In this document: one piece after another, positions 678 to 48,966 of the stretch
Layout of the letters: each line of letters begins with the position of its first letter
How positions within the stretch are numbered: position 1 is the first letter of the stretch
Source: a virus
Taxonomy: Duplodnaviria; Caudoviricetes
Direction: 5' to 3' (one strand)
Length of the DNA: 48,966 nt
IMG/VR virus record: IMGVR_UViG_3300025392_000867
Location: 1-48,966 of that record
Made by a program: the position numbers and the translations under genes
The notes under the pieces: model-generated
Databases searched by the model: none
What the model saw: the letters and a program-made list of their open reading frames with translations, nothing else
What the model was told of the DNA's origin: nothing

Positions 678-1232
678 TTATGCTAAAAAAGCAAGAGGTT
701 TTGTGATGCGTTTGTTCAAGTAGTCTACCACGGCTAGATTACTGTCAGTAGCTTCTTTTACATAGGTATACATATTGGCATAAGGGAGCTCAATACTAGC
801 TAGTGTTTCTCCTAGTTCGTTCTCCATGACAATACCGTATTTGCTACACAGGTGTTTAATGGTACTATTGGCACTTAAACAAACCATACAGCCTTTTCGT
901 ATGTTGCGTGTGCGACACCATTGGATACAACGTTTCATAAGACTATTACCTAAACCCTGTCCTTGGTAATCTTTCAATACTGAAAATGCCAATTCCATAC
1001 CATCCTCAAGGGCGATATGTCCTACTGCTATAAATTCTAACTGCTCGTTTTCTACAGCAAATAGAATATGTTGTTTAGTATTGGCTTCGAACCGGTCACA
1101 AAGTGTGTCCAAGACGTAGTCGCTAACTGTATAGCCAAACCGTAATATCTTAGATTCTGCATCAAGACATTTAAGGTGCTGACGATATTTGGTATATTCG
1201 TGTGGCAGTACACGACGAACTGTAGTATGCAT
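678..1232 (-). CDS. GNAT family N-acetyltransferase
   Basis: Acetyl-CoA motif A: FSVLKDYQGQGLGNSLM. Confidence 0.85.
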   Translation of the reverse strand: MHTTVRRVLPHEYTKYRQHLKCLDAESKILRFGYTVSDYVLDTLCDRFEANTKQHILFAVENEQLEFIAVGHIALEDGMELAFSVLKDYQGQGLGNSLMKRCIQWCRTRNIRKGCMVCLSANSTIKHLCSKYGIVMENELGETLASIELPYANMYTYVKEATDSNLAVVDYLNKRITKPLAFLA

Positions 1233-45337: not shown

Positions 45338-45409
45338 ATGGCATACAGAGCAAAAAACGGTAGCATGAAAGCCGCAGTACGCAGAGTTCTACGTCGCGGT
45401 AAGAAGTAA
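45338..45409 (+). CDS. basic micropeptide 2 (23 aa, MAYRAKNGSMKAAVRRVLRRGKK)
   Basis: AAGGAG RBS, read manually. Confidence 0.65.
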   Translation: MAYRAKNGSMKAAVRRVLRRGKK

Positions 45410-45776
45410 TTTAAAGAATTGTTGTAATCCCTTCAAAGCGAAGGCGTTGCGGACCCGGGTTCGACCCCCGGCAGGTCCACCAAAAGAAAATTCAGCAGGA
45501 TGCATACTGCGGCCAACCAGTAATGGAGCCAACCGTGAAAGGATCTGAGTTTTCTTCTGATGGGCCTGTATTGGCTTCGACGTGGCGAGATAGTAGAGAC
45601 GGCAACACAGTAGGCGATGACTGTCAATCAAGCAAATCTAGTAAATGCAAAAGCATCTACATTCGAGTTTTTCCAAGTTCCTGTAACATTAGCAACTGCT
45701 GATGATGCAGAATTTGCACTAGCAGCCTAAGAAACTGCACTCGCGAGGTAGGATAGACCTTGTCACCCAACACACC
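45410..45776 (+). ncRNA. ssrA: circularly permuted (two-piece) tmRNA
   Basis: T arm plus CAGGTCC-A-CCA (ends 45482) precedes GGGCCTG (45562); G3.U pair; tag frame 45647-45730 ends ALAA*; outer ends approximate. Confidence 0.92.
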
Positions 45777-45801
45777 AATGGACCTTCGGGTCCATTTTTT
45801 T
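45777..45801 (+). terminator. intrinsic terminator after tmRNA
   Basis: AATGGACC-TTCG-GGTCCATT then a T tract. Confidence 0.88.
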
Positions 45802-45824
45802 CAACACACATTAAGGAAGTACAC

Positions 45825-46113: not shown

Positions 46114-46566
46114 ATGAAGAAATTTGCAATCGCAACATTGATGGCCCTAGCGGCTGTAACAGCAAGTGCTGTAGAACTAGGTGTAAACGGATCTTACGAT
46201 TACGGTTCACCAACACAACGTCCAGGTGCAGGTATCACAATTGGTCAAAAATATGACAAGTTTGGTATCACTGCTGGCTTTGATCGTTACACCAAAGGTA
46301 CAGATCAAAACAAGTGGACACTAGTTGGTTCATACGATGTTTACACAGTTGGAGCCGCAACATTTGCAGTTAAAGCTGGTGCCGCATATATCGACAATAC
46401 TGGTAATACTCCAGACGGTTATGCAGGTCTAGTTGGTACAGGTGTTAGCTATGCCGTTGCTAAGAATGTAGCATTGACAGCTGACTATCGTTATCAGTTT
46501 GGTCAATCACGCATTAACCAATTTGATGGCAATACAATTTCAACTGGCGTTAAGTTCTCATTCTAA
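46114..46566 (+). CDS. outer-membrane beta-barrel protein (OmpA-TM/Ail-like)
   Basis: Signal peptide, alternating beta strands, C-terminal GVKFSF. Confidence 0.85.
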   Translation: MKKFAIATLMALAAVTASAVELGVNGSYDYGSPTQRPGAGITIGQKYDKFGITAGFDRYTKGTDQNKWTLVGSYDVYTVGAATFAVKAGAAYIDNTGNTPDGYAGLVGTGVSYAVAKNVALTADYRYQFGQSRINQFDGNTISTGVKFSF

Positions 46567-46581
46567 TTTATAATTAGATCC

Positions 46582-46607
46582 ATAAAAGGACCTACGGGTC
46601 CTTTTAT
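46582..46607 (+). terminator. intrinsic (possibly bidirectional) terminator
   Basis: ATAAAAGGACC-TACG-GGTCCTTTTAT. Confidence 0.8.
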
Positions 46608-46727
46608 TATTAATTTTTTCAATAAGCGTTATTAAAATTATTATTGAAAAAATCAATAAATTCGCTTGATTTAATTAGTAAATACTATTACAATAGAAGT
46701 AAGACAACACACACAAAAGGAGAAAGT

Positions 46728-47177
46728 ATGTCAGCTACATTAGCAAATTTAAGTAGTGCATTGGCCGGCGAAAGTCAAGCACACATCAAATATCGGTATT
46801 TCGCCAAGATTGCTCGTGAGGAAGGTTTTGAAGAAGTTGCAAAGCACTTTGAACACACAGCAGATCAAGAACTTAAACATGCATGGGGTCACTTGGAATT
46901 GCTTATTGGCAAACCTTCAACTAAAGAATGTTTAGAGAAAGCAATCGAAGGTGAAACTTACGAGTTTACACAGATGTATCCGCAGTTTGAAGCTATTGCT
47001 ATTAGCGAAGGCAACGTAGAAGCCGCTAAAGAAGCACAGCATCAAATTGAAGAAAGTAAAGAACACGCAGAGCAATTTGCGGCAGTATTGGCAAAGGCAG
47101 AAAAGCGTTTTGCGGCTTTGAAGAAAGTTGAAGAACGTCATGCTCTTGCTTACAAGAAAGTTTTGGAGGCACTATAA
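46728..47177 (+). CDS. rubrerythrin (ferritin-like di-iron domain)
   Basis: AGESQA, EEG, QELKHA, GETYE, ESKEH; AAGGAG RBS favours ATG 46728. Confidence 0.9.
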   Translation: MSATLANLSSALAGESQAHIKYRYFAKIAREEGFEEVAKHFEHTADQELKHAWGHLELLIGKPSTKECLEKAIEGETYEFTQMYPQFEAIAISEGNVEAAKEAQHQIEESKEHAEQFAAVLAKAEKRFAALKKVEERHALAYKKVLEAL

Positions 47178-47305
47178 TGGAACACGTATGCGTAGTATGC
47201 GGTCACATACATGACGAAGCCACCGAAGGCAAATGGGAAGACTTACCTGCAGATTTTCTCTGTCCAGAGTGCGGTGTAGGCAAAGATGAGTACGAAACCA
47301 TCTAG
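47177..47305 (+). CDS. rubredoxin (42 aa)
   Basis: Read manually: CVVCG...WEDLPADFLCPECGVGK. Confidence 0.9.
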   Translation: MEHVCVVCGHIHDEATEGKWEDLPADFLCPECGVGKDEYETI

Positions 47306-47346: not shown

Positions 47347-47474
47347 TTGACACAGAGACTAAATAACTATACAATAAGAACATGCACAAACAATCCGTTT
47401 GAGCAGATGTTGTAGTAATACAACAAAGAAATTTTAAAAAAGTTGTTGACAGTACTGCTGAAAGGCGTTACAAT
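47347..47474 (+). promoter_or_regulatory. two tandem sigma70 promoters (first with embedded TAAATA)
   Basis: TTGACA(47347)-17-TACAAT(47370); TTGACA(47446)-17-TACAAT(47469). Confidence 0.75.
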
Positions 47475-47531
47475 TAACACATGAACTAGCAATTCCGCTA
47501 GTAAACAAAAAGGTTTAAAAGAGAAAACAAA

Positions 47532-47684
47532 ATGCAATCTTGCAATAGACATCATCAGTTTAATACGATGCCCAAACAGGTAGGCGTTATAGCCTCTTAT
47601 TGGTCAGCGATTAATGGCGGAAGTCTATTATCACTAGATCGCACACCAGAGATTAATAGTAGGGTCCGGAGGACTGTCGTGTAA
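47532..47684 (+). CDS. putative attenuator leader peptide (50 aa)
   Basis: MQSCNRHHQFNTMPKQVGVIASYWSAINGGSLLSLDRTPEINSRVRRTVV; its 3' end overlaps the antiterminator arm. Confidence 0.6.
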   Translation: MQSCNRHHQFNTMPKQVGVIASYWSAINGGSLLSLDRTPEINSRVRRTVV

Positions 47685-47748
47685 CACAAAAGTATACACA
47701 ACAAACTTCAAGGACCCTAGGATTAAAAACCCTGGGGTTTTTTGTTTT
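47660..47748 (+). terminator. alternative antiterminator/terminator
   Basis: TAGGGTCC(47660-67) pairs GGACCCTA(47712-19); alternatively GACCCTAGG(47713-21)/CCTGGGGTT(47731-39) plus a T tract. Confidence 0.75.
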
Positions 47749-47760
47749 GTGGAGGAGAAA

Positions 47761-47925
47761 ATGAAAACTATAGATTACTCAAAATTGAATGAACGTATTG
47801 TTGAGCAGGCTTATGAAGCTGTTCTTAATAAAGAGCAACTCCAAAAACTTATTCAAGATAAGTTGGAACGTGCTAGACAATATCACGAAGCGTTAGTGAA
47901 ATCACCGACGTTTAGTGTAAACTAG
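47761..47925 (+). CDS. small helical protein (54 aa)
   Basis: GGAGGAG RBS; MKTIDYSKLNERIVEQAYEAVLNKEQLQKLIQDKLERARQYHEALVKSPTFSVN. Confidence 0.7.
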   Translation: MKTIDYSKLNERIVEQAYEAVLNKEQLQKLIQDKLERARQYHEALVKSPTFSVN

Positions 47926-47931
47926 TACACC

Positions 47932-48098
47932 GTGTGAAGATACCAGTAACGAGGACTGGGCCCTGCACGTAAAACATGGGGCGAACGGGCGGCCTATCGG
48001 ATGGAACTCCTCTTCTGGAGCGAAAAATGGTAGCGTATTAAAGCATTCCCGGCCTTAGGGCAAGTGGGTTCATCCATGTAGAGTGCTTTAATACACAC
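47932..48098 (+). ncRNA. candidate multi-stem ncRNA upstream of the tRNA array
   Basis: Stems CCAGT/ACTGG, GCCCTG/TGGGGC, CTCC/GGAG, and 14-bp GTATTAAAGCATTC/GAGTGCTTTAATAC. Confidence 0.55.
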
Positions 48099-48124
48099 TT
48101 TCTCAAAACTACCTGAAATAGTTG

Positions 48125-48153
48125 TTGACATAGTCAAGAGAGAGTGTTATAAT
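48125..48153 (+). promoter_or_regulatory. consensus sigma70 promoter for the tRNA array
   Basis: TTGACA-17 nt-TATAAT with extended -10 TG. Confidence 0.85.
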
Positions 48154-48161
48154 TAAAACTT

Positions 48162-48246
48162 GGATGTGTAGGAAAACTGGTAACCCCAGGAGACTGTAAA
48201 TCTCCCGCCACTGGCACTGTTGGTTCGACTCCAACCGCATCCACCA
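48162..48246 (+). tRNA. tRNA-Tyr(GTA)
   Basis: GGATGTG/CGCATCC-ACCA; GGAGA-CTGTAAA-TCTCC; long variable arm. Confidence 0.92.
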
Positions 48247-48252
48247 ATTTAT

Positions 48253-48328
48253 TCCCTAGTAGCTCAGAGGTAGTAGCACTTGACTGTTAATCAAGGTGTC
48301 GGTGGTTCGATCCCACCCTGGGGAGCCA
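48253..48328 (+). tRNA. tRNA-Asn(GTT)
   Basis: Cloverleaf, CTTGA-CTGTTAA-TCAAG, CCA. Confidence 0.95.
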
Positions 48329-48334
48329 GTCAAT

Positions 48335-48408
48335 CGCGGATTAGAGAAGAGGTATCTCAGGAGTCTCATAAGCTCCAGTCGCTGGTTCGAGTCCAGCATC
48401 CGCAACCA
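48335..48408 (+). tRNA. tRNA-Met(CAT), initiator-like
   Basis: C1xA72 mismatch; GGAGT-CTCATAA-GCTCC. Confidence 0.88.
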
Positions 48409-48412
48409 ATAC

Positions 48413-48487
48413 GGCTTCATAGTATAATGGTTAGTACGGTGGCTTGTCACGCCATTAATAGGAGTTCGATTCTCCTTGGAGCCGCCA
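48413..48487 (+). tRNA. tRNA-Asp(GTC)
   Basis: GTGGC-TTGTCAC-GCCAT; discriminator G; CCA. Confidence 0.93.
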
Positions 48488-48493
48488 TATTTT

Positions 48494-48567
48494 TCCCGGA
48501 TAGTTAAATGGTATAACGGTCGCTTGATAAGCGATTATCGAAAGTTCAATTCTTTCTCTGGGAACCA
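48494..48567 (+). tRNA. tRNA-Ile(GAT)
   Basis: GTCGC-TTGATAA-GCGAT; CCA. Confidence 0.92.
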
Positions 48568-48572
48568 AGTTT

Positions 48573-48627
48573 AGGATGCTAACAGCAACTTACAAATTTT
48601 TTATGGAAAAAAAGTAAATGCATCCTG
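48573..48627 (+). ncRNA. short hairpin element embedded in the tRNA array
   Basis: AGGATGC/GCATCCT closing stem, ACAGCAA internal loop, inner TTAC/GTAA and T6/A6 stems. Confidence 0.5.
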
Positions 48628-48636
48628 TTTAATTAT

Positions 48637-48711
48637 ATCCTGGTAGTTTAATGGTTAGAACGCTGGCCTTTCAAGTCGGTAACACGGGTTCGATTCCCGT
48701 TCAGGATGCCA
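48637..48711 (+). tRNA. tRNA-Glu(TTC)
   Basis: CTGGC-CTTTCAA-GTCGG; CCA. Confidence 0.93.
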
Positions 48712-48719
48712 AACAATTT

Positions 48720-48794
48720 GGGGGCAGTAATGGGTTACGGGTTTGCTTTGCAAGCATACTGTCTAGAAGGGTTCGATTCCCTCGGCCTCCACCA
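48720..48794 (+). tRNA. tRNA-Ala(TGC), atypical
   Basis: G3.U70, loop TTTGCAA, discriminator A, CCA; weak D arm and several mismatches. Confidence 0.8.
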
Positions 48795-48800
48795 AATTAT

Positions 48801-48876
48801 CTCTATGAAGCGTTATCAGGTTGCGTACACGGTTTGGGGCCGTGTGGTCTAGGTTCGAATCCTAGCATGGAGACCA
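48801..48876 (+). tRNA. tRNA-Pro(TGG)
   Basis: CACGG-TTTGGGG-CCGTG; CCA. Confidence 0.9.
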
Positions 48877-48881
48877 AATTT

Positions 48882-48955
48882 GCCCTATTAGTTAAATGGT
48901 AGAACACCTGTTTTGTAATCAGGGGATGGCAGTTCGATTCTGTCATGGGGCACCA
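48882..48955 (+). tRNA. tRNA-Thr(TGT)
   Basis: GCCCTAT/ATGGGGC-ACCA; loop TTTGTAA. Confidence 0.92.
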
Positions 48956-48966
48956 AGTTAAGGATG

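Follow-up and report, generated by a model that had tools for sequence, protein, structure and literature searches.

A predicted ribosome-coupled attenuator with an amino acid-complete leader upstream of tRNA genes in uncultured phages

The 48,966-base linear record IMGVR_UViG_3300025392_000867 (Caudoviricetes) derives from an uncultured phage, has an estimated completeness of 6%, and was analysed over its whole length, which we refer to as the window. Towards its 3' end, which falls inside a tRNA array, a short leader open reading frame (ORF) lies behind two sigma70-type promoters and is followed by an intrinsic terminator, a gene for a small protein, a structured RNA and the first genes of the array (Table 1). 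A first-pass annotation had read this arrangement as an attenuator whose leader senses the whole tRNA pool, and the parts that it listed are all present, both the two promoters and the downstream series of a 54-amino-acid (aa) ORF, a structured RNA and tRNA genes. A consensus promoter lies within 160 nucleotides (nt) of the leader ATG in 98 of 100 related leaders, and same-strand tRNA genes follow all 75 leaders that have at least 1.2 kb of downstream DNA, the first tRNA being found at a median of 462 bases. The locus thus shares two features with ribosome-mediated transcription attenuators in general: a short ORF with initiation signals after a promoter, and predicted mutually exclusive antiterminator and terminator structures over the end of that ORF.

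Table 1. Positions of the leader element and of the features around it in the window.
Feature	Position	Strand	Description
Upstream promoter P1, sigma70-type	47347..47375	+	11/12 consensus; predicted
Leader promoter P2, sigma70-type	47446..47474	+	11/12 consensus; predicted
5' untranslated region (UTR)	47485..47531	+	Small hairpin (47485-47502), then A-rich stretch and weak Shine-Dalgarno-like GAGA; from folding
Leader ORF	47532..47684	+	50 sense codons, 20 amino acids, 31/32 codon classes; predicted sensed zone from codon 1 to ~41
Conserved hairpin inside the leader	47600..47649	+	47600-47613 with 47636-47649; consensus fold; candidate RNA polymerase pause hairpin
Antiterminator hairpin	47660..47719	+	5' arm 47660-47667 in the last leader codons, 3' arm 47712-47719; fold, covariation at two positions
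Intrinsic terminator	47710..47748	+	Stem 47710-47721/47731-47742, then U run; consensus fold
54-aa small protein	47761..47925	+	Optional member; homologues in most, not all, loci
Structured RNA, ~170 nt	47932..48098	+	Conserved, covarying, co-occurs with the leader; outside Rfam
Internal promoter	48125..48153	+	12/12 consensus, directly before tRNA-Tyr; predicted
tRNA array start	48162..48955	+	8 tRNAs (ARAGORN, also Rfam): Tyr, Asn, Met, Asp, Ile, Glu, Pro, Thr; record ends at 48966

Recounting the leader ORF confirmed its composition, including the 36 different codons and the absence of a single class, CTY. Under a uniform-codon null, 50 codons hold on average 25.4 classes, in agreement with the 25-26 estimated earlier, and at least 31 classes arise with P = 0.0008 and all 20 amino acids with P = 0.043. 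The claim of codon richness therefore stands for class coverage and falls for the number of distinct codons, which we dropped as a signal: at least 36 are expected with P = 0.30. Random windows of the same genome lie far below the leader, since none of the 11,713 50-codon windows of the window's genes has 31 classes; among the 55 ATG ORFs of 40-56 codons in the window, two have 20 amino acids and only the leader ORF reaches at least 30 classes. Upstream of the antiterminator arm the leader retains all 20 amino acids and 29 classes. Its AGG and CGG codons would not be sensed because they lie within the hairpin arm, and neither would the last 8-10 codons, so that the earlier term "pan-codon" overstates a reading that holds for amino acids and most isoacceptor classes and not for every codon. 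The ORF matches no family in Pfam or PHROGs.

Homologous leaders were collected with queries that see different parts of the element. A deep protein alignment offered no conserved stretch usable as a query. Peptide searches gave 40 and 61 viral loci, largely overlapping, and a pattern made from the terminator only, which is blind to the peptide, gave 119 loci from 51 of the 64 parts of the collection. Together these yielded 102 distinct leaders, and 100 after two loci cut at the 5' end had been dropped; one locus has no upstream DNA. All 20 amino acids are present in 91 of the 100 leaders, 19 in eight and 18 in one, and in the peptide-blind terminator subset the full set is present in 83 of 92. 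A pattern made from the downstream RNA, which sees neither the peptide nor the terminator, gave 241 loci, of which 94 were short of upstream DNA and six were duplicates. In 114 of the 141 loci examined (one being the window itself), a terminator is directly preceded by the end of an ATG ORF of 30-56 codons, chosen on length only; these leaders have 20 amino acids in 66 cases, 19 in 26 and 15-18 in 22. The remaining 27 loci comprise 14 chance matches to the pattern and 13 true ones, with a 20-aa leader in seven, a 19-aa leader in three, a 25-codon leader with 16 amino acids in one, and no ORF with at least 16 amino acids in two. When those 13 are left aside, the merged set consists of 196 distinct leaders of 32-56 codons, and 145 of them contain all 20 amino acids. 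Very short leaders (~25-33 codons, with 16-18 amino acids or fewer) are found in L359, L265, L233, L284 and L295 and possibly represent a reduced form of the sensor. A distant member, L422 (~860-1020, plus strand), has a GTG-start leader of 52 codons that contains the full set of 20 amino acids; its hairpins differ in wording, and the same RNA follows.

Completeness persists in diverged leaders. Among 51 leaders less than 50% identical to one another, 25 have all 20 amino acids and 38 have at least 19, against 2.6% and 15% expected from length-matched draws from 184 flanking genes, and at less than 40% identity 10 of 21 leaders are complete. A ribosome that stalls can have an effect only where the 5' arm is left uncovered. 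The same completeness was seen in this predicted sensed zone, defined from the ribosome footprint as the codons that start at least 10 bases before the 5' arm: without the initiator, this zone (mean 34 codons) is complete in 17 of 51 diverged leaders (0.3% expected) and has at least 19 amino acids in 27 (2.6% expected). With the boundary set at 7, 10 or 13 bases before the arm, the zone is complete in 83, 73 or 24 of 100 leaders, and the drop between 10 and 13 bases indicates that the amino-acid set is often finished right at the leading edge of the ribosome. A methionine other than the initiator is present in 98 of 99 leaders, and within the zone in 45 of the 51 diverged ones. In 68 disjoint close pairs, residues present in a single copy were changed less often (144/1219, 11.8%) than residues present in several (762/3772, 20.2%; odds ratio 0.41 within residue type), and 114 of the 144 changed single residues reappear elsewhere in the partner's zone, although some of these may be alignment shifts. 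Judged from these sequence comparisons, amino-acid completeness upstream of the arm is under selection.

The codons chosen indicate what is sampled. In the diverged zones CGG does not occur and AGG occurs twice. Given their peptides, the zones cover 24.2 classes against 22.8-23.3 in synonymous resampling (z 5.8-8.0; 0/500 in each of three nulls). An excess of leaders with both codon classes over expectation is seen for Pro (29/32 vs 16), Arg (18/22 vs 11-12), Gly (25/30 vs 15-17) and Ala (33/42 vs 25), and it is weak for Gln, Ile, Ser and Leu. In family boxes the leaders favour C-ending codons (200:112, or 64%, vs 2218:5121, or 30%, in flanking genes), whereas in split boxes they favour U-ending ones (107:410, or 21% C, vs 4297:7542, or 36% C); both trends hold at third positions predicted to be unpaired (76:34 and 48:133, respectively). 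A uniform GC pressure was ruled out as their cause, since split boxes shift the opposite way. This codon choice is the reverse of that in highly expressed bacterial genes, and family-box codons ending in C rely mostly on one isoacceptor. According to the available part of one theoretical study, known attenuators favour starvation-sensitive synonymous codons (PMC1183508). The composition of the leaders is flat, with about one codon each for Trp, Cys, Asp, Glu and His per zone; the mean count per amino acid correlates with the number of codon classes with a rho of 0.59 and with the frequency in flanking genes with a rho of 0.50, which is a weak point. The best reading is that the unit sampled is the amino acids and most isoacceptor classes, not every codon.

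The RNA around the leader stop is predicted to adopt two exclusive structures. The antiterminator is the minimum-energy fold of 47480-47760 (z = -5.0) and has 47712-47719 in common with the terminator, which forms in folding once the 5' arm is covered; the exclusivity proposed by the first-pass annotation was reproduced in this way. The terminator, with a loop of 9 nt, had been missed by a simple terminator scan limited to loops of 8 nt. When the window was folded from the leading edge of the ribosome, A-site positions at codons 1-41 gave the antiterminator and positions from codon 42 to the stop gave the terminator. The terminator was likewise obtained in 49 of 49 representatives with the arm covered, and in 2-7 of them with the ribosome 4-8 codons before the arm. 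In homologues the ORF, the position of its stop and both hairpins are kept, and the covariation looked for in the antiterminator was found at two arm positions, which show C-G to U-A exchange: Watson-Crick pairs number 36 and 35 of 51, where shuffled controls give 21.4 and 22.6 (0 and 1 of 5000 shuffles), with an anchor that is blind to the tested bases, some anchors being misplaced and relatedness being ignored. In 50 of 51 cases binding between the arm and its own terminator flank is better than for a 42-base stretch lying further upstream. Relative to the leader codons the arm falls in each of the three frames (101/85/10), the distance from the leader stop to the terminator is 25-31 nt in 170 of 196 leaders, and variants of the terminator stem remain paired in diverged members. 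RNAalifold on MAFFT alignments recovered only the terminator and part of the downstream RNA, and anchored pair counts were used instead because the spacers align poorly. Covariation of the terminator in the alignment obtained with the terminator pattern was discarded as uninformative, the search pattern having fixed those bases.

The two-hairpin picture given earlier was incomplete, as it overlooked a third hairpin, at 47600-47649, that lies inside the leader and ends 12 nt before the G run (GGG) of the antiterminator arm. Its 12 pairs are kept in 41-61 of the 61 leaders of the nearer group, and the zone folds better than codon shuffles, with z < -2, in 31 of 51 leaders (the window itself has z = -1.6). 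The hairpin pairs the Trp codon with the Pro-Glu codons and explains the few conserved leader residues. A spacing of 12 bases to the G run is the geometry of a pause hairpin, and the third hairpin may accordingly serve as a pause signal for RNA polymerase. As far as sequences can establish it, the order promoter-leader-antiterminator-terminator-RNA-tRNA, the fixed distance from stop to terminator and the covarying pairs are conserved, and the position of the ribosome is predicted to decide which hairpin forms.

Initiation takes more than one form. Among the 196 leaders, 130 are leadered (107 with a GAGA, GGA or GAGG motif), 56 are leaderless and 10 lack a consensus promoter; in the leaderless ones the ATG lies at most 11 nt from the -10 box and is often part of a Met-Met pair. 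The 5' UTR of the window was considered as Rfam freshwater-2 (RF02980) and rejected, as it scores 19.7 bits against a gathering cut-off of 49.9 and the family is absent from the hits in 20 relatives.

Downstream of the terminator, the 54-aa protein has no convincing match in Pfam or PHROGs. The structured RNA is found by nhmmer behind 81 of 100 leaders; its first stem is paired in 241 of 241 loci at a position that the pattern left unconstrained, with five pair types, and compensatory pairs are present. It has no Rfam match in the window or in 20 relatives, and about 700 viral stretches are estimated to contain the search pattern made from it. As judged by eye at 48099-48153 and in L009, L010, L014, L016 and L181, the hairpin that closes the structured RNA contains the internal promoter in its loop and 3' arm, and relatives without the promoter have a short hairpin there. 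The tRNA genes can be numerous: three long arrays behind the leader have 28, 38 and 28 tRNAs for 20, 19 and 19 amino acids. A near-consensus promoter precedes the first ARAGORN tRNA in 20 of 75 loci, the window among them, and none was found in the other 55; in L584, 21 tRNAs follow the leader without a consensus promoter over 5.7 kb. The caveat, raised earlier, that the array has a promoter of its own is therefore justified for this genome and not in general. A simple scan of the window found no terminator between the RNA and the tRNAs, a point on which no systematic search was made. The switch is thus one input to the tRNA array and often the only one visible at its head. Where an internal promoter is present, it often stands before tRNA-Tyr or before a Tyr-like gene that ARAGORN misses.

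Taking comparison and folding together, we think it probable that the element is a ribosome-coupled attenuator that would open when the decoding of nearly any tRNA fails and that would feed back through the synthesis of phage tRNAs; the attenuator interpretation came through the computational tests of codon coverage and of ORF and hairpin conservation. In the model, RNA polymerase would pause behind the 47600-47649 hairpin until the ribosome arrives, after which the two would race, the ribosome over ~20 codons and the polymerase over ~85 bases. Once its A site has reached codon 42, the ribosome would cover the 5' arm and the terminator would form, whereas with the A site at codon 41 or before, or without any ribosome, the antiterminator would form and transcription would read through. 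A single missing, uncharged or cleaved tRNA would make the ribosome lose the race, leading to more of the near-complete phage tRNA set; once decoding has recovered the switch would close, a negative feedback on usable tRNA. Because of the internal promoter, the switch in this genome would only add to a basal tRNA supply, and the 54-aa gene and the structured RNA would be governed by the switch alone.

Several observations weigh against this interpretation. Leaders of 32-38 codons (n = 18) have on average 17.4 amino acids and only one is complete. The leaders are of common ancestry, so that counts and shuffles overstate their independence. In folding, which was done at equilibrium and not co-transcriptionally, the terminator also formed in 10 of 49 representatives without a ribosome and, with the ribosome stalled further upstream, in 5-18 of 49. 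The two codon classes of Thr (26/47 observed vs 33.6 expected), Val (7/14 vs 7.7) and Lys (13/29 vs 13.7) do not occur together in excess. In this genome a perfect promoter separates the terminator from the tRNAs, an internal promoter is also present in two of the long arrays, and each of the three has further promoters deeper inside. The leader favours GCC, CCC, CAG and ACG, and no tRNA of the types Ala-GGC, Pro-GGG, Gln-CUG or Thr-CGU was found among 35 partial and three long arrays; feedback is therefore not one-to-one, and the leader probably samples the host tRNA set more than that of the phage. Finally, the theory predicts that sensitivity is low if a single regulatory codon stands among many (PMC1183508). 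Severe rather than mild depletion may therefore be needed to trip a switch that has one codon for each tRNA; such a response would suit nuclease attack or a collapse of the tRNA pool during infection, both of which are known pressures on phages in the accessible text of two reports (PMC11555353, PMC10264068).

It is unlikely, though worth weighing, that the same switch reads host nutrition or the overall speed of translation (tRNA charging, antibiotics, ribosome supply), with tRNA abundance or cleavage being incidental. A general starvation sensor would equally need all 20 amino acids, the state without a ribosome folds as read-through in 39 of 49 representatives, and no isoacceptor signal is seen for Thr, Val and Lys; in the part of the report at hand, the actinobacterial whiB7 attenuator answers both the loss of 18 of 20 amino acids and ribosome drugs (PMC10274678). 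However, the genes behind the leader are tRNAs and not biosynthetic enzymes, extra tRNA would presumably be no cure for a shortage of amino acids, and for Pro, Arg, Gly and Ala both classes are in excess. We regard as decidedly improbable a switch that mainly serves the 54-aa protein and the 170-nt RNA, with tRNAs made chiefly from their own promoters. The perfect promoter at 48125 and the internal promoters described above would fit such an arrangement, as would the RNA being the most constant neighbour of the leader and the few loci that have a promoter between terminator and RNA, but most arrays lack a consensus promoter before their first tRNA and the small ORF is missing from many loci.

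The composition of the leader might also reflect a function of the 50-aa product, acting in trans or by nascent-chain arrest. Low peptide conservation had been expected of a codon sensor, and this expectation was not borne out: in 39 close pairs identity is 79% for the leader and 61% for the next small gene, and Trp, which is present once in almost all leaders, is unchanged in 136 comparisons. In the same pairs, though, synonymous sites changed by 12% in the leader and 29% in the next gene, and conservation at both levels fits constraint on codons and RNA, without excluding a role of the peptide. Furthermore, 30 diverged leaders have no invariant column, and the Trp and Asp-Arg-x-Pro codons are the two sides of the internal RNA hairpin; the distance from Trp to the stop ranges from 10 to 33 codons, Cys floats between 6% and 86% of the length in diverged leaders, and the frame of the C-terminal codons over the arm varies. 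A functional peptide is therefore very improbable in our view. That a chance composition happens to lie over a constitutive terminator is hardly credible and effectively refuted: for 50 codons the full set is expected at a rate of about 4% and is found in one further short ORF of the window, but the pattern recurs in lineages less than 40-50% identical and in peptide-blind samples, single-copy residues are protected, and the antiterminator pairs covary.

The attenuator reading places the element close to known systems without making it a member of any. The enterobacterial trpL, hisL, pheL, leuL, thrL and ilvL regions have the same series of leader ORF, candidate pause hairpin, antiterminator and terminator, but their codons are concentrated on one to three amino acids, and the enzymes under their control are those for the same amino acids. 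In trp and his the first hairpin competes with the antiterminator, so that an absence of translation leads to termination, whereas the hairpins of the phage leader do not overlap and an absence of translation is predicted to give read-through. With its flat composition and with tRNAs downstream, the element does not group with amino-acid operon attenuators, and no Rfam leader family was matched in the window or in 20 relatives. T-box riboswitches also control termination according to tRNA status, but they bind one uncharged tRNA directly, without a translated leader; no Rfam T-box match was found in the same sequences.

A close counterpart is the whiB7/wblC attenuator of Actinobacteria, for which the accessible part of one report describes a stall on an upstream ORF (uORF) that leads to an antiterminator, and increased read-through upon loss of the start codon (PMC10274678), the same logic as is predicted here. 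In M. smegmatis, 18 of 20 amino acids are sensed by a uORF that has all but Cys, and removal of its single Trp codon cut the response to Trp starvation (PMC10274678), a precedent for sensing conferred by a single codon. The same source indicates that this uORF is selected for Ala (25-40%), that several amino acids are absent from it in M. tuberculosis, and that a bacterial transcription factor is controlled (PMC10274678). The phage leader, in contrast, has a flat composition with only ~2 Ala in 34 codons, conserves completeness and precedes phage tRNAs as targets, and its next ORF has no WhiB match in Pfam or PHROGs. We conclude that the element is real and conserved and that it varies a mechanism already known, its input and its target being unusual; it would work like the whiB7 and trp attenuators and belongs to neither.

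The purpose of phage tRNAs has long been debated, with compensation of codon usage and resupply after destruction of host tRNAs as opposing proposals in the portion of one report available (PMC10264068). Clusters of phage tRNA genes replace tRNAs that host nucleases have destroyed, as described for T5 tRNA-Tyr against retron Eco7 and for tRNA-Lys against PrrC (PMC11555353; also PMC10264068). In their available parts these papers stress resistant anticodon loops and strong promoters, one of them before tRNA-Tyr, like that at 48125 here; the word stem "attenuat" is absent and no inducible sensor is mentioned (PMC11555353, PMC10264068). Nor was a report of an attenuator before phage tRNAs found in the full-text literature, a search that did not extend to subscription papers or to the supplement of PMC5737381 (224 RNA motifs). 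If the attenuator reading is right, the element would be a switch that ties tRNA transcription to the decoding of every amino acid and regulates supply on demand; it would invert the usual logic of attenuators, with a single codon for every amino acid in place of many codons for one of them. A bolder version, which we hold open as a tentative proposal with the balance somewhat against it, is that a clade of phages of 350-400 kb has a universal alarm for tRNA-destroying immunity, in which a 40-codon test tape carries the weakest-read codon for nearly every host tRNA and turns on a full replacement tRNA set once any anticodon nuclease fires. The 170-nt RNA would then be a further, undescribed part of the response. 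The element of 200 nt is directly testable and could also be a compact reporter for tRNA-targeting defence systems.

With regard to the phages themselves, relatives bearing the same leader element reach 345-400 kb at a completeness of 94-100%. The window also encodes a ribonucleotide reductase, an endolysin and virion genes. A two-piece (permuted) transfer-messenger RNA (tmRNA) at 45377-45821, about 1.7 kb upstream of the leader, matches the betaproteobacterial family, and a tmRNA is likewise close to the leader in L001, L002, L004, L009 and L225; the host may thus be betaproteobacterial, as the tmRNA type suggests. Queries made from the region, its attenuator, its downstream RNA, two divergent loci and the 54-aa protein found no cultured relative among 50,697 GenBank phage records, whose matches were tRNA hits or chance only. 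In GTDB genomes the downstream-RNA pattern gave 120 loci from 19 of 64 parts, and only two were true RNA matches: L479 and L475 have the complete element with 20-aa leaders and come from metagenome bins labelled Bacteroidota. Probably they are binned phage contigs, but they could point to a second host group. Three hits in the Roseobacter group that were viewed resemble antisense 16S rRNA by eye and have no match to the RNA profile. In 24 expression runs, less than 0.1 of the searched words was present. Contigs of relatives in four freshwater RNA libraries span leader, terminator and RNA, mostly at less than 95% identity, and were not used as evidence because contigs cannot show ends, strand or level.

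Other features of the neighbourhood were noted in passing. Genes for an outer-membrane beta-barrel-like protein, a rubrerythrin and a rubredoxin lie immediately upstream of the leader (46114-47305), and in L106 a group I intron match (68 bits, 1009-1200) lies a little upstream of it. Within the array of the window, a non-tRNA hairpin element occupies 48573-48629; similar ones are found in the arrays of relatives, and another may begin at the end of the window. A tRNA-like gene at 48720-48794 was missed by both ARAGORN and Rfam; its anticodon loop reads GCA (Cys), and it has a T-arm and ends in CCA. Finally, tRNA-Ile with a UAU anticodon, which is rare in bacteria, is present beside CAU-anticodon tRNAs in the arrays of 12 of 35 loci, and the leader usually has ATA.
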